This document shows, one piece after another, positions 4,817 through 42,919 of a stretch of 45,817 nucleotides of DNA. Location: the IMG/VR virus record IMGVR_UViG_3300045520_000024; one strand, given 5' to 3'. Made by a program: the position numbers and the translations under genes. The notes beneath the pieces are model-generated. The model was not told the DNA's origin and searched no databases. It saw only the letters and a program-made list of their open reading frames with translations. This stretch comes from a virus. Each line of letters starts with the position of its first letter. The first letter of the stretch is position 1.

Positions 4817-7800
4817 TAATTCAGCACTCCCCTTTCTTCTAATCTTCCTCTTCTTGCTAATTCATTATCGGTGTGTGGTGCTGTTTGACGACTCACACGC
4901 TTACCGTCCATATTAACTACAACAGTACCGTTTCCAACGCCTGCAGCAATTTGACGTAATAAAGAAATGATTTCAGATAAATCAGTATTTGAACTATCTG
5001 AATTGCTACCACCTAACACATTAATCGTTAATGTTCCTAACTGTTCTGCGACTGAATCAAATAGATTGTCTAAAGAGAAACTCTTAACACTATTTAACTT
5101 GTCACTCATGTTTGTCATCAAGTTACTAGCAACATTAGGAATATTCGAAATAAACTCCATTCCACTCATTCCCATGTATTTCAATGACTGCATGATAAGT
5201 TCCATTGCGCGCTTAGGTTTTGTTAACGGGATAACCATTTCTGCTTTATTTCCTTCTCCAGCTCGATATAAACCGTCTTTAGTGATTAAACCGCCGTTTT
5301 CATAGCCAACACCACGATAAGCAGCTGTTAAACTACCGTAGCGACTTACAGCATAACGAATAGAAGCAAGCATATTGGATAATGGATCATAGATATCTTT
5401 ATTGAATGGCGCCCTAGCGTGAGCTCTAAAGGTTGAACCAATCACTTGGAGCAGTCCTTTTGAAGGGTCTCCATTAATAGCATTGATATCCCAATTATTG
5501 ATAGCTCTAGGATTACCACCCGATTCAGTACGCATTTGATTCATCATTGCGTTTAAGTTGGAAGCTGAATATTGCCCTTCCATTTTTAACGCTTTAATAG
5601 CTAGACTTCTCCAACGTTCAACGCCACTCATACCGCCAGTGTCTCCACTACCAGTAAAGATATCACCTGAACCCATAGCACCGTTTAAATGTATATGGTC
5701 GAAGTGGTCATTGTCTGGCCAGTTTACCCACGAACCAGATGAACCAGTTCCGGATAACCCCAATCGGTCTCGGACTTTACCAAGCGTGATAACATATCCG
5801 ATTTGTTTAGGGAATTTGTTAAAGGCGTAATCTGCAATTGTTTTATACCTAGAATCGCCAATAACTCCTGGATAAGCTAAATCTAGTGCTTGATGTTTAC
5901 CATGATAATACGGGTCGCCTGGACGATAACCAGAAGTAACAGTTAAACCAGGGAATTTGCCCATTAATTTTTGAGCCACATCAACAAGATATTGATAAAC
6001 GTTATTAGCGTTCATTGCACCATCAAACGTTCCATGACTAAAGAATTTGTCCATTTCAGACTTAACTAAGCCAAACGCTTCACCAGTCATTAACTTAGTT
6101 GCTGATTTACTCATATTTAACCAAGGTTCTTTGACTCCATCAAAATTAACACGCTTATCAATAAAGTTCCTAAATGCATCTGGACCGTCTAATAAATCAA
6201 CGATATCAAAATCTCCGATTCCATCTTTATAAGCAGGTAAACCGTTCATTTTCGCAACAGTTCGACCACTCATAACTTTAGTCCCTTTAGGTAAGTTAGC
6301 TATCAAATTCTTGATACGTGGGAATAAACCGACACGTCCGTCAGGTGTTTGATAAGCTTCTTGCCAGTTTAAATCTCTAGCATCATTTACTAGAGCTGGA
6401 CCGTTAAACGGATGTCCATCTGTTCCTTTGGCATAAGCAGGAATCTTCCAGGAAGGAAGTTTTCTATCTGAGCCGACTTCGCTTAAAACAAAATTAACGC
6501 CAGTTAGCAATCCGTTGATACCTTTGCTAATTCCGTTTAACATTTCTCCGTTTATATTTCTGATAGCTGTTTGAATAACTCCTTGTCCATTTTTGATACC
6601 TGTTGCTAAAGAATTCATCAAACTTAATCCTGCGTTACGCATATTAGTTTGATGCTTATTAACATTCGCTACCATCAATTGACCAATACTAAATGCACGA
6701 CCTTGAGCTAATACAAATAAACTGCTAAAACCATTTATTACGTTTTGTAATAAAGATTTACCAGTTTGAGACATTTGAGGAAAATATTTAGATAAGACTG
6801 TGTTAAGCATTGTCATTAAGTCGTTACCAGATTGGTTCATTTCAATGGCTGTTGAATCAATACCATCTGATACTGCAGAACCTAACTCACTACCAACGTT
6901 AAACACATCAGGGATATCATTTGAGAGAACATCAGTAAACTGCGTTCCTAAATTCATGTCCGTTTGAACGTCAGGAGTTTGAGTTTGATTATTAATAATT
7001 GGCTCAGCAACATTAACAACTGTTTGAGCTGTTTCAAATGTTTTAGAAACAACACTTCCCATATTTTGCACAGCATTTTTAACAGTTCCAGCTTTATCTG
7101 AAATACCTTTAGCAACACCAATTGGAATCCATTGAGATATTTTAGCCATTACTCGTGAAGGAGAATGAATATCAAGTTTCTCTTTGAACCAACCTTTGAT
7201 ACCGTCTGTGACTTTACCAACGGCATCTTTAACAGCGTTTATTTTATCGGTGATACCTTTTACAAGGCCGTCCATAATGTTTTTAGCTATCTCTGTTAAA
7301 TCAATAGAGCTTACTGTATCAACAATATTATCTTTTATTTCAATGAATTTATTAACGACACTATCTTTTAACTCAATAATTTTATTAATAAATCCGTCTT
7401 TTAGATCAATTACTTTCTGAACTACTGAATCTTTCAATTCAATAATTTTTTGAGGTACCTCAGTTACTAGCCAAACGAACATAGAAACCACATCAGCTAC
7501 TAATTCGTTAATTTTTTGAATAACTAAGTTTTTCATATTAACAAAGCCATTAACAATAGTATTTACAAGTGATAAAACTAGCTCAGCTAATGTTGTAATA
7601 GCTTTATTCCATGATTCAACTATCCAATTCCAAATAGTTGTAAATATTTCGACTACCTTGTTTTTAATACCTGTTACAGCAGTAACGATAATACTCGTTA
7701 GAAATTGGAAATAACCTATAGCAAAAGTAATAATACCTTGCCAGATACCAACAATGGCATTAGATAAATTTTGCAAGATGGCAATTAAATCTGTTTTTAA

Positions 7801-18771: not shown

Positions 18772-21108
18772 TTATTCATCCACCTCAGCGAACAACGTCT
18801 TATACCAACAACGGCAACTAATCACGTTATCAGCAGAAGCCCCATTTTCGCTATCTCGCGGAAACATTAATTTTTCACCATTTACAATAAAGAAATCCAT
18901 AAACCCAACACGTTGACCATTAGCATCTTTATGCCATTGTCTCGTACGGTCTTGATGAGCTGAACGCCACTCTTTACCAATGACAATACCTAAATCATAT
19001 AGTTGCAAATCAGAAGCAAACTGACCAGTTGAACCAGCTGAAAGAAGTTCAGTTCTTGCTATGGTCTCAGCTCTCCATTTATCAAACATGTAAGAACTTT
19101 CTAACTTTTTAGCAACGTCTTTAACGCTATAAGGTCCATCATTTAGCACCTCATTGATAACTTTCAACACTTCTTTTCTGTTGGTATCGACTATTTGAAT
19201 AGCTGTATTCTCAGCACGCCAGTTAATCCATTCCATTAAACGCTCATCTGTTTGATTAAACTGAACATCTACGAATACATTCAACAGATTCACGTTTCCG
19301 ATAACAGAAGTAACCTGAGTTAGCCACGATTCGACCACACCACGCCACAGCTCAACATCTTTATTCATTTCAAAAAAGACGTAAGTCATTAGCCAAAGCT
19401 CTAACTCGTCATCTGATTCTTCCTCTTCATCAGCACGAACATGCTTAATAGCTTGTTTTCGTTCTATTTTTGGAGGTTCTGGCGCTTTGTTTATGTTTTT
19501 AATGTAATTATCTAACTGCGCTTTTAATACACCTAAAAACTCATCATTTGCGATATCCATTGATGCATCTAATATCTGGTCAAATAACTGAAATATTTCT
19601 TCATCGCTTACTTGTTCTCCACGTTGCCCCCTTTTTCCCAAGAGGGCTTTACTGGGAAACTTTCGAATATAACGACCTGTTTCATCACCTTCTAAATCCT
19701 CATCGTCTTTAGGTTTAGCCTTAGACTGTAAAAAGGCTTGATAAGAACCTAAGGCATCTGACTGTTGCGGTTGTTTAGGCTCTCCAACAGCATCGTGACC
19801 AGTAATGACGTTCGATGCCTCATCATTATCAATCCAGCCTTGTTGAACTTTCATGATTTCATTGTTAATCTCAATTGCCTCAGCGTTAGCTTCTTGCGCT
19901 CTGTCTTTAGTTCTCACATCATTGAACGTGATTTTTACAGTGCTTTGGTTACCTTGGACACGTAAAGCAACAGTATAAGCTTTTTCAAGCAACCGCTTAG
20001 TAACATTTTGAATACTTTTTACACCAGCGATGTGTATTTCCCATTGGATGGAACCGTGCGTTTCAGTAGTTGACTCGTTCCGACCTAACAAAATAGGCAG
20101 CTGCTTCAATGAAGTAACTACCTGTTGATTAATGATTTCTATTAATGATTTACTATCCATTGATTTACCATTAGTACCACCAACAGTCTGAACTTTTGCA
20201 GAGTCATCATGAAGAAAGTCGTCATCTGCTTCTAGTTCTTCAAATTGACTAAAAACACCGTCCATATAGCTATCAACGAACTCTTGTACAGCCTCGTCCC
20301 CCTGATCCAATACATGTTGAGGTAAGTTTTTAAGTATCGCCTCAGCTGATACAGAGATATCAAAACGTGCATGTCCTTGATGATGAGCAACAGCTTTTAA
20401 ATCCCTTAACACTTCTGTTTGGAATAAAATAGCTTCAATAGCTGGCAACATAGGGCTACGACCGTAAGGATCATCAACATCTGGGTCAATCGGAACATAA
20501 AACACTTGCTCCATGTTTAACCTGGTAAATGTTCCATCGATTTTTCTTTCAACTAAAACTAGTTCCTCTGTTTCTTTATCCATAATGAAGTCCAGTCGTG
20601 ACGGTGAAATCACATGAAAATCTACTACATCATCAAGTGACTCGTTTAATTCAACCTCTAAAGCAACAGCTCCCTCAGTGTAACCAGTCAAATTAAGAAC
20701 ATTAATCAATTGATCAGTGCCGCCACTATATAACTTTCCTACTCGTTGAGCTAAATCAGAATTGATATACTCTTGCGCCGCTTCATCATTGTCTCCATTT
20801 TGGTCAAAGACCTCAACAGTATGACCTTGATTAGCTAAACGCAAGAAATTCCAGACTGCCATAGACGCATCCGGATTGATATCACGTAAATACTTCAAGG
20901 TCTCAAGAATATGTTTTTCTCTGTGAGGTGCTCGTCTTAAAGGCATGTCCTCATTGAGTAACCAACGTTTATAAAGTGGTGTTGTTTCTCTACCACCTTG
21001 CATTCTTGCCCTCTTAGCGTTCTTATGAACTGCTGTTTGAACACTTCTTAAATACTTTTTAGATTTATTTATCGCTCTTTTTCGTTTGTATCGTTGATAA
21101 AAGTTCAA
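18772..21108 (-). CDS. Portal protein fused to a Mu-F/SPP1 gp7-like minor head protein domain
   Basis: 778 aa directly after terL. The C-terminus ARTELLSAGSTGQF...TRQWHKDANGQ...NVISCRCW is the Mu F signature. Confidence 0.75.
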   Translation of the reverse strand: MNFYQRYKRKRAINKSKKYLRSVQTAVHKNAKRARMQGGRETTPLYKRWLLNEDMPLRRAPHREKHILETLKYLRDINPDASMAVWNFLRLANQGHTVEVFDQNGDNDEAAQEYINSDLAQRVGKLYSGGTDQLINVLNLTGYTEGAVALEVELNESLDDVVDFHVISPSRLDFIMDKETEELVLVERKIDGTFTRLNMEQVFYVPIDPDVDDPYGRSPMLPAIEAILFQTEVLRDLKAVAHHQGHARFDISVSAEAILKNLPQHVLDQGDEAVQEFVDSYMDGVFSQFEELEADDDFLHDDSAKVQTVGGTNGKSMDSKSLIEIINQQVVTSLKQLPILLGRNESTTETHGSIQWEIHIAGVKSIQNVTKRLLEKAYTVALRVQGNQSTVKITFNDVRTKDRAQEANAEAIEINNEIMKVQQGWIDNDEASNVITGHDAVGEPKQPQQSDALGSYQAFLQSKAKPKDDEDLEGDETGRYIRKFPSKALLGKRGQRGEQVSDEEIFQLFDQILDASMDIANDEFLGVLKAQLDNYIKNINKAPEPPKIERKQAIKHVRADEEEESDDELELWLMTYVFFEMNKDVELWRGVVESWLTQVTSVIGNVNLLNVFVDVQFNQTDERLMEWINWRAENTAIQIVDTNRKEVLKVINEVLNDGPYSVKDVAKKLESSYMFDKWRAETIARTELLSAGSTGQFASDLQLYDLGIVIGKEWRSAHQDRTRQWHKDANGQRVGFMDFFIVNGEKLMFPRDSENGASADNVISCRCWYKTLFAEVDE

Positions 21109-22577
21109 TCTTTCGACCTCCTTCCTCTTATTTTTGGCATTCTAGGTTTAAAGTCTTTAACTTCAAAAGGTTTACTCATTTTAACTAACGCTTGTGTCAT
21201 AGCATCCACGTCGTCATCATGAGCACCATTTGGAAATGATTCTAGTTCATCTAATATCTCATCAGACCACTGTTTCCATAACGGATGTGGCAAATAAACG
21301 TTACCTGCTTCCCAAAAAGGAGAAACAGCATAAGCTCTTACTTCTTTACCACCATCTGGATTAACTGGAACCATTCCAGCTATTTTCTTTTGCAACATTT
21401 CAATAACTGCTGAACCATTGGCTTTATCCTCAACATATTTAGCATGAGCGTTAGGCCATCTTGTTGTCATAGACTGAATAGCTTTCATTGTTTCAACTAT
21501 TCCCATACGTTCATGATGTCTATCTAATAAGTAATAATCAGCTGCTTTCTGCCCCCAAACATGACCAGCGACATAATCTGATGTTTCTTTGTTTTTAAAG
21601 GTACAATCCCAAGACTGGACTTGTCTGTCTAGGTCATCTGGTAAAATCACAACATCATCACTTAAACCTAGCTTAGTTCTCATTTCAATTGTTGGAACGT
21701 AAAACTTAGCCCATGAACGTCTAAAAATATCTCCTCCTGCAGGAGTCGGCCTCTGCTGATAAAGAGAAGCCCAACCACGAGAACCAGAAACAGCCTTTGT
21801 TTGTTTAGCCCATTCTTCATCTTTACCGATTTCAGGAGCCAACGACTCACCGATTTCACGACCTAATAAGTCTCCCTCTTCAGCAATAGCAGGTATCTTT
21901 ATTTCAACCCACGGAAGATTACCTTCTTTAAGCAATCGACCTGCTAAATCGTCCTCATGCCACCTAGTCATAATGATAATGACTGAACCCGTAGCAGATA
22001 AACGAGAGTAAAACGTATCTTGCCACTCAGCGTATATCTTATCCCTAATCGTTTTACTATTCGCCTCAGCCCTATTTTTGATTGGATCATCAATAATCAG
22101 AAGTGAAGAACCACGACCAGTAGCACCACCAAGGATTGATGTACTGTACAACTGCCCTAGATGACCATCAATTCCCCATTCCGAAACACTAGCCGTATCA
22201 GAACTGATTTTTAAATCGAATAATGATTCACTGTAAGTTCTGAATTTCTCACGGTTTTTACGACCAAACTTTTTGTAAAGTTCTTCTGAATATGAAACAA
22301 CCATTGCTAACTTTTCTGGATTCTTCATCAGATAGTATGCTGGGAATGTCTCAGTAATAAAAGTTGATTTCCCATGCTGTGGTGGCAATTCCACGATTAA
22401 AAATAATCTTTCACCATCTGCAATACGTTGCAAATAAGGTGCTATATACGTTTGGTGTCTTAACGGTGCATAGATACCACCGTGAGAATAAGAAAAGAAG
22501 TCAGCAAAATTACGTCTTGCTAACTCCTTTTTCGCTTCCTCTTTAATTTTATCCATATCAAGTTGAGTCGTTGCCAT
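21105..22577 (-). CDS. terL: Terminase large subunit
   Basis: Walker A PPQHGKS and Walker B LLIIDDP. The C-terminal nuclease region carries the acidic motif HDDDVDAMT. Confidence 0.85.
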   Translation of the reverse strand: MATTQLDMDKIKEEAKKELARRNFADFFSYSHGGIYAPLRHQTYIAPYLQRIADGERLFLIVELPPQHGKSTFITETFPAYYLMKNPEKLAMVVSYSEELYKKFGRKNREKFRTYSESLFDLKISSDTASVSEWGIDGHLGQLYSTSILGGATGRGSSLLIIDDPIKNRAEANSKTIRDKIYAEWQDTFYSRLSATGSVIIIMTRWHEDDLAGRLLKEGNLPWVEIKIPAIAEEGDLLGREIGESLAPEIGKDEEWAKQTKAVSGSRGWASLYQQRPTPAGGDIFRRSWAKFYVPTIEMRTKLGLSDDVVILPDDLDRQVQSWDCTFKNKETSDYVAGHVWGQKAADYYLLDRHHERMGIVETMKAIQSMTTRWPNAHAKYVEDKANGSAVIEMLQKKIAGMVPVNPDGGKEVRAYAVSPFWEAGNVYLPHPLWKQWSDEILDELESFPNGAHDDDVDAMTQALVKMSKPFEVKDFKPRMPKIRGRRSKD

Positions 22578-23307
22578 TGGCTAATCGCCTCAATTCGTCT
22601 TCTGTTAAGCCAGTAAAAGGATTAGATACTCCAATACTTCCAGAATGTTCTACTTTATCTAGAGCTTTAAAACCTCCACGATCAAGAATATCTTGGTAGA
22701 TGCTCTTTTTAAGTGATTGTAGTTTCTCCCAATCTTTAGACGGAAGATAATCTCTATAAAGATGGTCTTTTCTTCGAGCTAACTTATGAATATTGTTAGT
22801 AAGTTCAAAAGCTTCATCGCTCAACCCGTTTAATTGTTGATTCAACTCTTGTTTTAGCTCTTTGTTTTCAGTTTTTCGACCGTCAATGTCTTTGTTTTTC
22901 TCATTCAAAACACTAATATCACGATTTAACAAGGTTAGTTCATCTTGTAGCTCCCAAATTTCTTCTTGGAGAACCTCGACTTCATCAACAACCTCATCGT
23001 GTCGTTGAATTTTAGTATCGGTTTCAATCGCAATGTTCAAAAGACTAACAAAACTACGCAAACCCTCGTCTTCCATGCGTTTACGTAGATTCTTCATTTC
23101 TTCAACAATTTTTTGTTTGATGTACGGATGTGACAGTAAGGTCGAACCCTGTTGTCGAGCTGATTTAGGAGAATAACCTGCATCAATAGCTGCCTTAGTA
23201 GCATTGAAAGTATTCAAATAGCTCAATACAAACACATCGTACTTCTTTTTCGTTGCTTTAGTTGGTTCTTTGATTTCCGACAATGCTACCACCTTCTTTC
23301 TTTTCAA
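22558..23307 (-). CDS. terS: Terminase small subunit (Terminase_2-like HTH N-domain, long coiled-coil C-terminus); likely TTG start at 23283
   Basis: The motif YLNTFNATKAAIDAGYSPKSARQQGSTLL is present. There is an RBS (gaaggtgg) upstream of the TTG at 23283. Confidence 0.75.
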   Translation of the reverse strand: MKRKKVVALSEIKEPTKATKKKYDVFVLSYLNTFNATKAAIDAGYSPKSARQQGSTLLSHPYIKQKIVEEMKNLRKRMEDEGLRSFVSLLNIAIETDTKIQRHDEVVDEVEVLQEEIWELQDELTLLNRDISVLNEKNKDIDGRKTENKELKQELNQQLNGLSDEAFELTNNIHKLARRKDHLYRDYLPSKDWEKLQSLKKSIYQDILDRGGFKALDKVEHSGSIGVSNPFTGLTEDELRRLANGNDST

Positions 23308-23310
23308 TAC

Positions 23311-23346
23311 AAAAAAGACACATAACCCTTTGACAAGTTATGTGTC
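23311..23346 (-). terminator. Intrinsic terminator immediately upstream of terS
   Basis: Minus strand reads gacacataac-ttgtcaaaggg-ttatgtgtc followed by tttttt. Confidence 0.75.
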
Positions 23347-23515
23347 GAATAGCGCGATAGTCCTAGGTAACGATTTTCACGTCATCTTCCGTTTATCAGA
23401 CGGATGTTTGAATTAAACTAACCCTCGACCGCCGTACGCTATTTCTGATAAATCTATTTTCTTGGGAGGATGAGGGAACCACCCCTCAACTATTGGTGGT
23501 GGTTGTATGGCAATA
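23347..23515 (-). ncRNA. Candidate structured leader RNA (GC-rich, competing helices)
   Basis: There is no ORF here and the GC content is visibly higher than the surroundings. Helix 23477-83/23498-504 competes with helix 23471-76/23483-88 and with CCCTC at 23422-26. A long-range helix pairs 23348-54 with 23437-43. Confidence 0.35.
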
Positions 23516-24433
23516 TTATTTAAACGGTCGTTGATCGGATGTTAACTTACTGTTAAATGTTCCTTTTTTAGCTTTAACCCATTCTGCTTTAAAATAAATT
23601 CTGCATTCTTCAATGAAATCATCCATTATCTTTTCAAACTCATCATCTTTTTTTTCGCTTTTTTCAATAAATTCTAAAGTGTCATCATTCATTTGAGATT
23701 GTGCATATTCACTCAGAAATATTTCGATTTTTTCAACATAATTTAGCAAATTATCATTTTCTTTATTTTTACCAAATAATAATTTAAATTTGTATTTACT
23801 TTTAAAGAATACATTTAATGATTGTGTAGCTTTAAGCACCTCGTTGTTCATATAATCAAGCATAATATCCGCTTCTTCTTCTTTTCCTAATCCTCCATAC
23901 AATAAACCTTGCGCTGAATATCCTCTGTAAAGAATATAAGCAGCATTAGTTTCTGATGCACTTGAACTAATACTTGATGCTATTTCGCGAGCTAATTCAA
24001 GCCAGTCAACTATTGATTTAGAAATAATATCAGCATCTATCTTTTTTTGCTCCCATTTATCAGTTTGTTGAGTTTTTATTAATTCTATGCTATTTGCTAT
24101 TCTTTCGTTTTCGTTTTTCTGCTCACCTTGAGTTTCGATAATTTCATTTAATCTTTCTTTTATTTTTTTGTTATCTTCATGCATTTCTTTATTCGCATCT
24201 ATCTCATCTTTTGCAATTACTTGATAAACTTCCCTTAATAATTTTGCTCTATTATTTTTACCTTCGTTCACTTGATTTTTGGCAATAGATTCTAACTCCC
24301 TTTGAGTTTTTCTGTTACTTAAAAATATATTAAATCCATTATTAATAAAACTAGCTGCAATAGTACCAAATCCAATCGAACTTAAGACGGTCCACGTATT
24401 AATTTCCAAATCAACCACTCCTTTTCCATACAA
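23516..24433 (-). CDS. Membrane-anchored coiled-coil hypothetical protein (very AT-rich moron); possible TTG start at 24409
   Basis: N-terminal TM segment WTVLSSIGFGTIAASFI followed by a long Lys/Glu/Asn coiled coil. I recognised no known motif. Confidence 0.55.
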   Translation of the reverse strand: MYGKGVVDLEINTWTVLSSIGFGTIAASFINNGFNIFLSNRKTQRELESIAKNQVNEGKNNRAKLLREVYQVIAKDEIDANKEMHEDNKKIKERLNEIIETQGEQKNENERIANSIELIKTQQTDKWEQKKIDADIISKSIVDWLELAREIASSISSSASETNAAYILYRGYSAQGLLYGGLGKEEEADIMLDYMNNEVLKATQSLNVFFKSKYKFKLLFGKNKENDNLLNYVEKIEIFLSEYAQSQMNDDTLEFIEKSEKKDDEFEKIMDDFIEECRIYFKAEWVKAKKGTFNSKLTSDQRPFK

Positions 24434-24438
24434 TCATA

Positions 24439-25023
24439 CTAAAAAAGGGACGTTTGCGCACCATCAATTAGAGATTTATTCAATTTCTCCATACCTCTGT
24501 TCACATAAGATTGAACCGTTGACCTTGAAACTCCCATATATTCAGCAGTTTCTTGATAACTATTTCCTTTGGCCACAACTGAGTTAATTGCTTCTTTTTC
24601 TCTATCAGTTAAGCAACTCATGTAATCATCTAACTTCTTTAAATCATCATCTGATAGATTCTCACTATCAAATCTAAACTTATTCACTACAACTAAATCC
24701 ATATTGGACCATAACTGAGTACGCTGGTATCTTGAACGATTACTAATTTCACGTCTTGCTCCTGGTTCTTTAGCATCACGTAACCACTCAATTGAGTACA
24801 TAGAACTAGAGATAACTTCGCCTAAGATCTTTATTCTTTTTCTAGCATCTGCACGTTCTTCAACAATTATCGGTATTTTCTTCCATTTACCTTGTTCTTC
24901 GCACTCTTTTTTTAACTTCGATAAATAGGCTTCTTTTTTCTTTAAGAACTCTAATCGTTGTTTAACACCCTCTAAATCATTTATATATTCTCGCTCTAGT
25001 TCATCAGCATACTTCCAAGTCAT
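24439..25023 (-). CDS. Sigma-70 region-4-type late transcription regulator (Xpf/ArpU-like position)
   Basis: C-terminal HTH LTDREKEAINSVVAKGNSYQETAEYMGVSRSTVQSYVNRGMEKL. It lies just upstream of the packaging genes. Confidence 0.6.
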   Translation of the reverse strand: MTWKYADELEREYINDLEGVKQRLEFLKKKEAYLSKLKKECEEQGKWKKIPIIVEERADARKRIKILGEVISSSMYSIEWLRDAKEPGARREISNRSRYQRTQLWSNMDLVVVNKFRFDSENLSDDDLKKLDDYMSCLTDREKEAINSVVAKGNSYQETAEYMGVSRSTVQSYVNRGMEKLNKSLIDGAQTSLF

Positions 25024-25124
25024 AATTTATTTCCTCCTTAAAATAAAAAAAGAGGACACCTCAACAAACGTATTAAACGTTCATCAAGATATCCTCCAGT
25101 TGTCTGGTCAGATAATATTTAGTT

Positions 25125-25304
25125 TTAAAACTTGCTTTTAATTTTCTGTTCTACAAAAGTGACTTTTTCGTCATGGCTAGTAATTTCTACAATTCCAAAC
25201 TTTGGCAATTCCGCTGCTTTCATCTGGCCATTGCTGATAATCACTAGAGCATTCTTTCCTTCGAGTTCTTTTATATCGTTTAAATCCATTGTTTTTAGTT
25301 CCAA
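25125..25304 (-). CDS. Small hypothetical protein (59 aa from TTG 25304, or 54 aa from ATG 25289)
   Basis: RBS aaggag at 25313-25318. The ORF is MDLNDIKELEGKNALVIISNGQMKAAELPKFGIVEITSHDEKVTFVEQKIKSKF. It lies below the track cutoff. Confidence 0.5.
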   Translation of the reverse strand: MELKTMDLNDIKELEGKNALVIISNGQMKAAELPKFGIVEITSHDEKVTFVEQKIKSKF

Positions 25305-39798: not shown

Positions 39799-40941
39799 AT
39801 GAGAGGTTCATTACGTAAACGAGGAAACAGCTGGTATTATATTTTAGACCTAGCTAAAATAAACGGAAAGAGAAATCAAATTGAACGATACGCAGGTAAA
39901 ACTAAGACTGAGGCACAGGAAACGTTAAATAAAGTTATCCATGAATACCAGACAACCGGAACGCTACCTGTTAACAATAATATTTCAACACATGATTACC
40001 TTGAACATTGGTTTGAAAACTATGTAAAGGTTGAACTAAAACTTAACACTCAAAAGAATTATCGAGGAATGTTAGATAAACACATCCACCCAGCAATTGG
40101 TGATTACTATTTAAAGGATATTAAACCAGCTACACTACAAGAACTATTGAATCAAAAAAAAGAGGACGGCTACGCTAAACAAACATTAGCTATAATGAAA
40201 GGTATTTTTAATAAGGCTTTTTCTATGGCGGTTTATCCGTATGAATTTATAAAAACGGATCCCTCACAGTTCGTTAAAACTCCTAAATACGACCAAAAGG
40301 AATGGAAAGATAAAGGTGATTTAAAAATAATTAGTTTTGATGACTTTAAAAAGTTACAAAATACTGTACCTGCTCACTCCCCTTACTATCTAGCGATGAT
40401 GATTAGTTTTCAGACAGGATTAAGACGTGCTGAGGTATGCGGTTTGCAATGGAAAGATATTAACTTTGATGATGAAACTTTAACCGTTGAACAAATTATG
40501 ATTCAGGATGGTAAAGGCTGGTTAATGGGAACTCCTAAAACGCAATCGTCATACAGGACAATTCATATTGGCCCTTCTCTCTTATCCCTACTAAAAAAAG
40601 CTAAACTTAGACAAAAAGAAAATAAACTATTTTATAGAAATTTCTATACTGAAACAGAATTTGTTTGTACTAAAGAAAACGGTGAGCCTGTTACGTTGAA
40701 CTCAATTAAGTGGTATACAGAGAAATACCGTAAAGAAAGCGGAGTAGATTACAACTTTCATTCGTTCAGGCACACTCACGCAACTATGTTACTCGAAAAT
40801 GGAGCTAAGCCAAAAGAAATACAGGTTAGGCTAGGTCATTCAAGATTATCAACTACTATGGATACATATGCTCATGTTACTAAAAAAATGAAAAAAGAAA
40901 CCGTTGATATATTTGAGAACATATTAAGAAATGAAGCTTAA
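39799..40941 (+). CDS. int: Tyrosine recombinase integrase
   Basis: The motifs GLRRAE, HSFRHTHAT and LGHSRLSTTMDTYAH are present (R-H-R-Y catalytic set). Confidence 0.9.
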   Translation: MRGSLRKRGNSWYYILDLAKINGKRNQIERYAGKTKTEAQETLNKVIHEYQTTGTLPVNNNISTHDYLEHWFENYVKVELKLNTQKNYRGMLDKHIHPAIGDYYLKDIKPATLQELLNQKKEDGYAKQTLAIMKGIFNKAFSMAVYPYEFIKTDPSQFVKTPKYDQKEWKDKGDLKIISFDDFKKLQNTVPAHSPYYLAMMISFQTGLRRAEVCGLQWKDINFDDETLTVEQIMIQDGKGWLMGTPKTQSSYRTIHIGPSLLSLLKKAKLRQKENKLFYRNFYTETEFVCTKENGEPVTLNSIKWYTEKYRKESGVDYNFHSFRHTHATMLLENGAKPKEIQVRLGHSRLSTTMDTYAHVTKKMKKETVDIFENILRNEA

Positions 40942-41319: not shown

Positions 41320-41598
41320 ATGATAAACAACCCAACTGGAATAGTAGATAAGATTAAATTAGTTACTTCCTACCCTGATATGTTAGTAAGATTTACTTTA
41401 GTTGTTGGTGATAATACAATCAATTGTATTTGCGGTGATACTTCTATATGTAACTCGTTACTGTTCTTAGAAGATGGTAAAACTGAGGTTGCGTTGTTTG
41501 GTATTTACAATAGTAGAAAACAATTAGTCGTTAAGAAGATGTTTATCAAGAACCCTACTTCGTTTGAAAGAGTATTTGCGATGGGTGGTGCTGTTTAA
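41320..41598 (+). CDS. Small hypothetical protein upstream of the Y-family polymerase (not obviously YolD- or UmuD-like)
   Basis: RBS ggag 8 nt before the ATG at 41320. Its stop lies 1 nt before the polymerase ATG. Confidence 0.5.
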   Translation: MINNPTGIVDKIKLVTSYPDMLVRFTLVVGDNTINCICGDTSICNSLLFLEDGKTEVALFGIYNSRKQLVVKKMFIKNPTSFERVFAMGGAV

Positions 41599-41599
41599 C

Positions 41600-42919
41600 A
41601 TGTTTTCAAATGACCAATATTTCAACTATGATGATGAACCTAAAAATGACTACTTATGTATTGATATGAAGTCTTTTTATGCTTCAGTTGAATGCGTGGA
41701 GCGAGGTTTGCACCCTCTTAAAACATTGTTAGTTGTAATGAGTGGTGGAGATTCTCCTGGGGGGTTAGCTTTGGCAGCATCCCCTCTTGCAAAAAAAGAG
41801 TTGGGTATCACTAATGTAACTAGAAATTTTGAAATACCTAACCACCCTAAATTAATTAAAGCTCCTCCAAGAATGAATCTTTATATAAAAGTAAATATGA
41901 AAATAAATGATATTTTAAGACGGTATGTTGGTGATGAAGATATCTTAGTTTATTCTATTGATGAAACATTCGTTAGAATTGAAGCATCAAAGCGATTGTT
42001 TCAAATGAATGCTTACGAATTTGCACAACAATTTATGAGAGAAATTTACCACGAAACAGGCCTGTTCTGCACTATCGGAATAGGTGATAATATGCTCTTA
42101 AGTAAGTTGGCTTTAGACAATGGAGCAAAGCATAACCGTGACATGATTGCTACATGGCGTTACAAAGATGTACCCAATACCGTTTGGAAAATACCAAACA
42201 TGACTGACTTTTGGGGGATTAATAAAAGAACTCAAAAAACTTTAAATAATAAAGGGATTTATTCAATTTACGATCTAGCTCATTATGACTTCTTCCAATT
42301 AAAAGACTCCTTAGGGATTGTTGGCGCTCAATTGGTAGCTCACGCATGGGGAATCGATAGAACTGATATATCTGACAGGTATAAACCTAAATCAAAAAGC
42401 ATTGGAAACAGTCAAGTTTTAATGAAAGACTACACGAATGTCAATGAGACGAAAATAGTATTAAGAGAAATAGCTGAACAAGTTGCTACAAGACTGAGAA
42501 AACAACATTATAAAACGTCTTGTATTCATGTGGCTGTTGGTTATTCTAGACTTGAGAATGAAAAAGGATTTTCAAGGCAGATGTCAGTACCTAAAACTAA
42601 CTCATCAAAAGAGATAGTTAATTATTGTATGACTCTCTTTGATAAGTTCTATAATGGATCCACCGTGAGAAATCTTTCTGTTAATTGTTCTAAGTTAGAA
42701 TCAACTGATGTTCTGCAACTTAATTTATTTGAAAAACCTGATGAGACTATTAACAATGAAACACTTGATAATTCTATAGATACAATTAGAAATAGATTTG
42801 GTTTCGGTTCGATTGTTCATGCTAGTAGTTTATTAGATGGTGCAACAGCAATAAATAGAAGTAATTTAGTTGGTGGGCACGCTGGAGGAATGGATGGTTT
42901 AAGTAATGGATTGGGATAA
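41600..42919 (+). CDS. Y-family (UmuC/UvrX/ImpB-like) translesion DNA polymerase
   Basis: The motif YLCIDMKSFYASVECVERG and the GIGDNMLLSKLA motif are present. Length is about 440 aa. Confidence 0.85.
   Translation: MFSNDQYFNYDDEPKNDYLCIDMKSFYASVECVERGLHPLKTLLVVMSGGDSPGGLALAASPLAKKELGITNVTRNFEIPNHPKLIKAPPRMNLYIKVNMKINDILRRYVGDEDILVYSIDETFVRIEASKRLFQMNAYEFAQQFMREIYHETGLFCTIGIGDNMLLSKLALDNGAKHNRDMIATWRYKDVPNTVWKIPNMTDFWGINKRTQKTLNNKGIYSIYDLAHYDFFQLKDSLGIVGAQLVAHAWGIDRTDISDRYKPKSKSIGNSQVLMKDYTNVNETKIVLREIAEQVATRLRKQHYKTSCIHVAVGYSRLENEKGFSRQMSVPKTNSSKEIVNYCMTLFDKFYNGSTVRNLSVNCSKLESTDVLQLNLFEKPDETINNETLDNSIDTIRNRFGFGSIVHASSLLDGATAINRSNLVGGHAGGMDGLSNGLG

Follow-up and report, generated by a model that had tools for sequence, protein, structure and literature searches.

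A conserved site, a predicted tRNA-like leader and a terminator in front of the late genes of a temperate phage

The DNA analyzed here, IMG/VR record IMGVR_UViG_3300045520_000024, comprises 45,817 nucleotides (nt); it is called the window below, and all coordinates without a locus number refer to it. The window is a temperate tailed phage genome, complete and circularly permuted, with genes for an integrase, RecT, a DnaB-like protein, terS, terL, a portal protein and an amidase. This study concerns the gap in front of terS, which, like the late genes, is read on the minus strand. The gap is 205 nt long and is flanked by an accessory open reading frame (ORF) of 305 amino acids (23516-24433) and by terS. 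The terL protein is 79% identical to its counterpart in Lactococcus P335 phages, and the nearest relatives of terS and of the regulator gene upstream are found in Enterococcus, Carnobacterium and, above all, Vagococcus. There seems to be an even chance that the late operon (packaging, morphogenesis and lysis) is controlled from the gap, in a phage with a host of the Vagococcus/Enterococcus type.

A preliminary description of this DNA had reported an ORF-free, visibly GC-rich gap containing a switch-like leader RNA and ending in a terminator. No credible ORF was found within the gap, the only one crossing it being a 48-amino-acid ORF on the plus strand. The G+C content is indeed raised (42.0% against 34.2% in the window; top 3% among 205-nt windows), but the excess is modest. 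The whole leader is more stably folded than shuffled sequence (z = -2.4). The following features were identified in the gap and in the two genes on which its interpretation depends.

23482..23513, minus strand: conserved block TTGCCATACAACCACCACCAAT-AGT-TGAGGGG, aligned without gaps across about 17 loci
23471..23488, minus strand: leader hairpin UGAGGG-GUGGUU-CCCUCA, its 5' strand being the block's conserved TGAG end
23464..23470, minus strand: single-stranded UCCUCCC containing an anti-Shine-Dalgarno-like CCUCC, which recurs after the hairpin in relatives
23348..23443, minus strand: irregular 17-pair stalk and tRNA-like cloverleaf (Rfam RF00005 match at 23427-23361)
23311..23346, minus strand: intrinsic terminator GACACAUAACUU-GUCAAA-GGGUUAUGUGUC followed by U6, found by pattern scan
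23295-23289 and 23283-23281, minus strand: ribosome-binding sequence AAGGUGG and TTG start codon, where homologous TerS proteins begin
22558..23283, minus strand: terS, small terminase and first late gene (Pfam Terminase_2, E = 1e-17)
24439..25023, minus strand: late activator with a sigma-70 region-4 domain behind an N-terminal helical hairpin (LtrA/Xpf/LlgA class; Pfam Sigma70_r4_2)

For comparison, loci on contigs were gathered via homologues of TerS and of the regulator and given L numbers. Other searches yielded little. A blastn search with the gap against 50,697 phage records gave no match, and exact-pattern scans for the block in IMG/VR and the JGI metagenomes returned only the contig of L001, the rest being chance or coding matches. 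A terS-based scan of GTDB genomes found a single Enterococcus relative, which is devoid of an intergenic gap, and otherwise distant matches.

The conserved block and the sigma-like activator

The block occupies the first ~35 nt of the gap (23513-23482), has the consensus TTGyCrTACA-N4-rCCACCwAT-N3-TGAGrG and occurs once in the window. It was aligned without gaps in about 17 loci from four genera, in each case just 3' of a gene for a homologous regulator of the sigma-region-4 type. The form TTGCCATACAACCACCACCAAT-nnn-TGAGrGG, with at most three mismatches, was found in L001, L007, L008 (twice), L037, L041/42, L049 (twice) and L051. More diverged blocks lie downstream of regulators that are 45-65% identical (L052, L044, L045, L047, L048 and L054-56). 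At ~31% identity a block is still found directly downstream, as in the PBSX-like element PBP180 of Bacillus pumilus (TTGTCTTACAGTTGCCACCTATAGTTAGAAAG), in Listeria phage FHC193-PLM9 (TTGCCGCACACCTGCCACCTATATATGAGAAG) and in the B. cereus-group phages BMBtp3 and CUBc25.

The block accompanies at least three unrelated terS families, namely Terminase_2 (window), PF10668 (L037) and Terminase_5 (L039). The genes upstream of it vary from locus to locus, the degraded elements L008 and L041 have lost the regulator and kept the block, and in PBP180 the regulator gene's own terminator sits 5' of the block. Judged by this distribution, the block is a DNA motif that travels with a late activator of the sigma-region-4 type and not with any one terminase type. 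The link to the sigma-like regulator that the preliminary description had suggested was thus borne out, the block following the regulator family across genera; conservation in related phages was likewise found, the same architecture being kept, in some of them with terminators of unrelated sequence.

Because the block co-occurs with the regulator, and in view of the published biology of LtrA and LlgA (see below), 23513-23482 is considered a putative target of the activator and is probably the late promoter. The 32-nt motif is not mentioned in the Ltr and LlgA literature cited here, although no literature search was aimed at the motif itself, and a literature search for an Xpf promoter consensus gave nothing specific.

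A pac or cos site was rejected as the identity of the unit, which is present with at least three unrelated terS families and always with the regulator family. A coding remnant was considered on the ground that some upstream ORFs terminate within the block, and was rejected because the reading frames vary between loci.

Units of block and terminator were found doubled around different accessory genes in L007 (1794-1819 and 2613-2638), L049 (1800-2060 and 2746-2840) and L008 (1100-1200). Behind the first unit of L049 and of L008 lies what remains of the 3' end of the regulator gene (~40 nt). The duplications resemble scars of recombination, as if the unit were a boundary at which genes are exchanged. 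L041 (4001-8037) and L008 (1-5270) have a truncated or deleted regulator and a split terL but still possess the activator site, leader and terminator; both appear to be degraded prophages or satellites. L041 adjoins the host lepA gene and a TIR/SEFIR gene.

The activator matched the NCBIfam model 'positive control sigma-like factor' (E = 6e-26) with a score of 91, below the family cutoff of 136, so that the assignment holds at the level of the class only; it also matched phrog_1190. It is ~31% identical to Xpf-like factors in Bacillus, Brevibacillus and Listeria phages. In the AlphaFold model, a confident antiparallel helical hairpin of 80 residues (residues 6-83, predicted local distance difference test score >90) takes the place of sigma region 2, and the C-terminal part has the region-4 fold. 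A Foldseek structure search with this model gave matches to the region-4 part only. A complete sigma factor was therefore rejected: both analyses recover region 4 alone, behind the N-terminal hairpin. Nor does the activator resemble a Q-family antiterminator, its sequence and fold being similar to sigma region 4 alone; the other genes of the window got no Q-directed search.

The predicted leader RNA and the terminator

All the helices listed in the preliminary description, together with the CUGAUAA loop and the terminator, are present at their positions on the minus strand. In the leader hairpin, UGAGGG (23488-23483) pairs with CCCUCA (23476-23471), and the strands covary by lineage as GAGGG/CCCUC, GAGAGG/CCUCUC, GUGAAGAG/UUCUUCAC and, in Listeria, AUGAGAAGUG/CCACUUCUCAU. 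The Listeria version belongs to the Rfam consensus structure of RliG. Because the partner strand changes in step in every lineage, the leader hairpin is, on this comparative evidence, real.

The other 5' helix pairs AACCACC (23504-23498) with GGUGGUU (23483-23477). When the block is included in the RNA, the two 5' helices exclude each other in silico (p ~0.75 against ~0.24), as had been described. The role of AACCACC/GGUGGUU as a regulatory helix did not hold up, since it is built on CCACC, the core of the conserved DNA motif, and most relatives, whose hairpin loop is GUAAAAC, cannot form it; apart from L052, only window-type loci can. In L052 a covarying first helix (ACGCCACC/GGUGGCGU) is followed by a U tract and resembles a terminator for upstream transcripts. 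A further alternative, the pairing of CCCUC with GAGGG at 23426-23422, has its partner sequence in place but is negligible (p 0.02).

The CCUCC motif follows the hairpin in L007, L037, L041, L051, L054, L047, L048 and L001 despite differing flanks; ribosome-binding sites, in cis or in trans, are possible pairing partners. The RNA common to all relatives 5' of the terminator consists of the 6-bp hairpin and CCUCC only.

The base of the stalk is a 7-bp long-range helix formed by AAUAGCG (23443-23437) and CGCUAUU (23354-23348), and the cloverleaf that it carries has an anticodon-like arm, UCCGU-CUGAUAA-ACGGA (23404-23388), with GAU at 23397-23395. The cloverleaf scored 31.6 bits with RF00005 (gathering threshold 29; E = 7e-5), a match seen only with permissive filters on 400 nt; Rfam at gathering thresholds gave no match in the whole window. 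Homologues in L049 (33.6 bits) and L039 (39.4 bits) also lie above the RF00005 threshold. ARAGORN found 0 genes by default and called the element, as Ile-GAU, only at the 80% threshold or in mitochondrial mode.

In an RNAalifold comparison of the window, L049 and L039 sequences, the acceptor-like helix ran on into the irregular stalk and 30 pairs were recovered, 100% paired and with four compensatory pairs (one in the stalk, one in the D stem and two in the anticodon stem); slid-register controls showed no compensatory changes. The window and L049 differ by 10 substitutions, nine of them in paired columns, and no pair is broken (P = 9e-4 for random placement). Four or more compensatory pairs were obtained under random placement in 0 of 200,000 trials. 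Since 10 of 10 substitutions preserve the fold and four pairs are compensatory, the comparison indicates that the cloverleaf is under purifying selection on structure. The RNA in front of the terminator is thus structured, as had been described.

The fold shares with tRNA a four-arm cloverleaf, U8, a 5-bp anticodon stem and the canonical loop CUGAUAA (U33, GAU and A37). It differs from tRNA in its acceptor stem, which is not a proper 7 bp: two adjacent mismatches occur, pairs 2-71 and 3-70 being G-G and A-A (A-G in L039), and the stem continues into a 13-pair stalk that extends to 23443/23348, leaving no free 3' end and no CCA. The D loop, AAUUC, lacks G18G19, the T arm (GACG-UGAAAAU-CGUU) has 4 bp only, and a tRNA-type elbow is not recovered. 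By these features the cloverleaf is a degenerate tRNA-Ile(GAU)-like fold and not a working tRNA as it stands. A Y-RNA/YrlA-like module (stalk GGUC/GACU) was tried and rejected: there was no Rfam Y-RNA match, and the stalk leaves from the acceptor and not from the anticodon position. No TROVE/Rsr domain was detected by Pfam in the ten larger window ORFs scanned.

The terminator consists of a 12-bp stem (23346-23317) and a U6 tract that reaches 23311, with a folding energy of -14.6 kcal/mol; when the 3-kb region is shuffled, 1.3 terminator-like sites are expected. The stem pairs with a probability of 0.995-1.0 whether or not the upstream RNA is included. The upstream RNA has no partner for the 5' half of the terminator, which forms no more than a local 4-bp helix until the 3' half has been made. 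The hairpin, CACAUAAC...GUUAUGUG, was found in nine distinct variants in which 97% of the cells are paired and the changes are mostly wobble-compatible (L007 (twice), L008 (twice), L037, L039, L041, L049 (twice) and L051). Terminators of unrelated sequence stand at the same position in L001, L044, L047 and L054.

From the U tract to the likely terS start there are 28 nt, and the region of the ribosome-binding sequence and start codon is conserved in L001, L007 and L008. terS is followed by terL (21105-22577) and the portal gene. No sigma-A-like promoter was found by scan on the minus strand within or 3' of the terminator up to terS. In the window, the late genes lie behind the terminator. The preliminary description was right in placing a strong terminator just before terS, with the late genes behind it: the hairpin is conserved and the ~28 nt after it leave no room for a promoter.

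The leader slot in related loci and the neighboring genes

The interval between the leader hairpin and the terminator is filled differently among the relatives, as listed below.

L007, L037, L051 and L049b: empty interval, with a linker of about 45 nt
L041/42 and L008b: a different multi-arm RNA of ~130 nt, no Rfam match
L054-56: tRNA-like RNA with canonical D and T arms and a 4-nt "anticodon" loop, Rfam tRNA 46.8 bits (L054:5433-5494)
L052: aberrant tRNA-like RNA with the loop UUUUUAA, 40.2 bits (L052:4200-4268)
L001: true tRNA-Trp, 3' of its terminator

Because L007, L037, L051 and L049b keep only the block, hairpin and terminator, the cloverleaf, as seen in these sequences, is an optional and exchangeable cargo module. 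In 254 kb of related loci, covariance model R1, built for the window-type element, recovered only the window, L049/L050 and L039, and a 24-mer from the cloverleaf had no exact match in IMG/VR. The multi-arm RNA (L041:5374-5500, L042:1879-2005 and L008:2250-2385) is closed by the helix GUGCCGUA/UACGGCAU and has three hairpin arms with loops that vary by locus; a relationship to the cloverleaf was dropped, as model R1 gives no match to it. Neither the L054 nor the L052 tRNA-like RNA was called by ARAGORN by default.

In L045 (IMG/VR phage, ~5655-5825) and L058 (Listeria phage FHC193-PLM9, ~2020-2165), pieces resembling a class II (Leu-like) tRNA, GUGGCGGAAUAGGUAGACG ... GGUGCAAAUCC, were noticed by eye. 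The two halves lie ~150 nt apart, with a matching 7-bp acceptor in L045.

Two further genes lie upstream of the gap.

23516..24433, minus strand: accessory gene of 305 amino acids between the activator and the block, no family match
25125..25304, minus strand: XtrA-like small protein (Pfam PBSX_XtrA, E = 2e-15)

The accessory slot is filled by different, unrelated ORFs in L001, L007, L037, L049 and L051. An XtrA-like gene likewise precedes the activator in L034-L037, L039, L049, L051, L052 and L054-56, that is, in most relatives for which the upstream region was recovered. A second strong terminator-like hairpin (20 pairs and a U tract) lies between the XtrA-like and activator genes of the window (25051-25097, minus strand); the activator gene, therefore, also sits behind a terminator. 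In L007, the closest relative (TerS 97% identical), a reverse-strand 'Beta_protein' gene (654-1718) replaces the regulator, and a small reverse-strand ORF (2666-2827) is inserted between the terminator and terS. Elsewhere in the window, a UmuC/ImpB-like translesion polymerase gene is located between the lysis module and the integrase (41564-42919 and 39799-40941).

Late control by read-through and its alternatives

The regulators of late transcription in Gram-positive phages known as Ltr include RinA, ArpU, LtrA (the Sigma70_r4 proteins), LtrB and LtrC (PMC3753634). LtrA proteins are late activators that act at a promoter 5' of terS, for which transcription starts have been mapped, and are the sole phage factor needed (PMC3753634). 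The window agrees with the Ltr systems and with Xpf of PBSX in the order of regulator, control region and terS, in the class of the regulator and in the presence of a cognate conserved site, and the block is also found in a PBSX-like element. By ancestry, the control region of the window belongs with the terS regions controlled by Ltr and Xpf. It differs from the published Ltr order (ltr gene, terminator, terS promoter and terS; PMC3753634) in that the terminator comes after the conserved site and the leader.

In Listeria, the comK prophage phi10403S encodes the late-gene activator LlgA and also carries the noncoding RNA rliG, which is expressed in lysogens and dispensable for plaque formation (PMC7397523). 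In L058, Rfam detected RliG (RF02415, 90 bits) at 1863-2055, between the sigma-like gene and terS, and the model spans the conserved activator site. RliG thus occupies the slot homologous to our leader, between the late activator and terS; its start, made up of block and hairpin, is homologous, and it has been detected as an RNA in vivo. On the other hand, the window has no RF02415 match, and the sequences are unrelated beyond the first ~40 nt. These results suggest that RliG is the late-operon leader of A118-like prophages.

In layout the gap is similar to the pR'-6S-tR' region of lambda, in which a control site is followed by a short terminated RNA right before the late operon and the late genes are reached by read-through; lambda 6S RNA and phage 933W belong to the general background of this comparison. 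In the window, too, the late genes are separated from the late control site by a terminator, and the slot takes tRNA and accessory genes, as does the lambda-type late region of phages encoding Shiga toxin (Stx). The Q-dependent pR'-tR' leader (PMC6266700) and the late-region tRNAs located close to stx in Stx phages (PMC7946995) have been described. In contrast to lambda, the regulator of the window is a sigma-region-4 protein and not a Q homologue, the slot holds a non-canonical tRNA-like cargo, the phage belongs to a Gram-positive host, and antitermination is here hypothetical. A literature search for tRNA-like leaders before terminase genes gave nothing specific, and neither a terminator after the conserved site nor recurring non-canonical tRNA-like RNAs are mentioned in the literature cited here.

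We consider with moderate confidence that an activator-dependent start at the block yields a ~175-nt leader RNA with a tRNA-like module, the late genes being expressed by read-through. The block would act as an activator-dependent late promoter, from which transcripts would begin at or beside the conserved UGAG. The leader RNA, if expressed, would form the 5' hairpin, expose CCUCC and then form the stalk topped by the cloverleaf, a structure that is supported by comparison. Because a strong terminator stands 28 nt before the terS start, the discrete ~175-nt tRNA-like RNA would be the main product, and terS and the other late genes would be transcribed only by polymerases reading through. Read-through would not be set by an RNA switch; it could be a fixed leak from a very strong promoter, or the activator could confer resistance to termination at the block, as lambda Q does.

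Several observations weigh against this reading. TTGCCA in the block is -35-like, but a 17-bp spacer leads from it to GTTGAG, which is no proper sigma-A -10 element; were TATATA/AATAGT (block positions 20-25) the -10 element, the start would fall within the 5' strand of the hairpin. The AlphaFold model of the activator has no sigma-region-2 bundle. No leader terminator was called by scan in PBP180, Listeria L058, L045 and L048; because some relatives are without one, the leader terminator is not obligatory for this regulator class. The window-type cloverleaf is represented by just three distinct sequences, two of them nearly identical. Finally, the RliG model in L058 begins ~58 nt 5' of the block and rliG is reported to be expressed in lysogens (PMC7397523); in Listeria at least, the block may be transcribed and the RNA is perhaps not activator-dependent.

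Some of these points would be accounted for by obligate antitermination in the manner of Q, which we judge unlikely as a whole. The leader would then be made constitutively or from upstream and stop at the terminator, as lambda 6S RNA does, and the block would be no promoter but a loading site at which the sigma-region-4 activator joins the polymerase and renders it resistant to termination. The missing region 2, the -35-like TTGCCA with no proper -10 element, and the expression of rliG, whose model spans the block, in the homologous slot during lysogeny and without late-gene expression (PMC7397523) are all consistent with this, as is the fact that most Vagococcus-type loci have a terminator between block and late genes, its hairpin being of at least four unrelated sequences. 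However, no upstream promoter was found that could feed the leader once transcription of the upstream operon has ended, as happens in PBP180; a leader terminator is missing in several relatives; the activator is not similar to any Q family; and Ltr proteins are described as activating the terS promoter with mapped starts (PMC3753634). A hitchhiking cassette, in which a decaying tRNA-Ile gene landed with its own terminator and has no function of its own, the terminator being simply leaky, appears more doubtful still. Phage leaders are known landing sites for tRNA and accessory genes (tRNA-Trp in L001; Stx phages, PMC7946995), and the cloverleaf, with its degenerate D and T loops, two acceptor mismatches and rejection by ARAGORN at default, is absent from the closest relatives having the same block and terminator (L007, L051 and L037). 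Against decay, the 10 substitutions between the window and L049 all keep the fold, and one of the four compensatory pairs lies in the stalk, which is not part of a tRNA. Moreover, empty leaders have the same terminator, so that it is not specific to the cassette, and the slot repeatedly holds non-canonical tRNA-like RNAs that belong to other sequence types.

The preliminary description had favored a switch-like RNA or a put/EAR-like element governing the terminator through competing helices. The two 5' helices are mutually exclusive in silico and L052 has its covarying first helix, and HK022 put and Bacillus EAR are likewise structured leader RNAs 5' of terminators. Control of the terminator by a switch was nevertheless not upheld and is now very improbable: the terminator takes no part in either 5' helix, it forms with p ~1 whatever the context, and its 5' half has no upstream partner. 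The first helix, moreover, draws on the conserved DNA motif, is lacking in most relatives and is itself terminator-like in L052. As for put and EAR, the structured core is a tRNA-like cloverleaf that is optional among the relatives (missing in L007, L037, L051 and L049b), and Rfam returned no riboswitch, put, EAR or other cis-regulatory match, only tRNA. Least probable of all is that the terminator only ends the upstream operon of activator and accessory gene, with the true late promoter overlapping or following it and the block being an element of the 3' untranslated region. The published Ltr layout, with a terminator before the terS promoter (PMC3753634), would fit such an arrangement. Against it, the terS start is a mere ~28 nt away from the U tract, with nothing promoter-like detected in between, the terminator loop varies and hence holds no conserved -35 element, and the block of PBP180 lies 3' of the upstream operon's terminator.

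A broader and quite speculative reading is that the sigma-region-4 activators (LtrA/Xpf/LlgA class) of Firmicutes phages act in a Q-like manner on a conserved promoter-leader-terminator unit, rendering the polymerase resistant to termination, and that the terminated leader is a dedicated expression slot for diverse, undescribed tRNA mimics. At least three sequence types that score as tRNA in Rfam, and other structured RNAs besides, were seen in the slot. If this idea is true, the tRNA mimics could act in trans, as decoys for tRNA-targeting defense nucleases or for tRNA-binding host factors.

Late control in temperate phages of Gram-positive bacteria is usually pictured as one activator acting at one promoter 5' of terS. 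The gap is about as likely as not to be a late-operon leader and attenuator with tRNA-mimic cargo, a variant on the known kind of late leader. The 32-nt motif common to Bacillus PBSX-like, Listeria and Vagococcus phages is a concrete candidate target for the sigma-region-4 activators. The strong terminator between this site and the late genes in many phages points either to regulated read-through or to a leader RNA that is itself the main product. The leader slot repeatedly holds non-canonical tRNA-like RNAs whose folds appear to be under selection, and the arrangement offers a genomic rationale for the orphan Listeria small RNA RliG.

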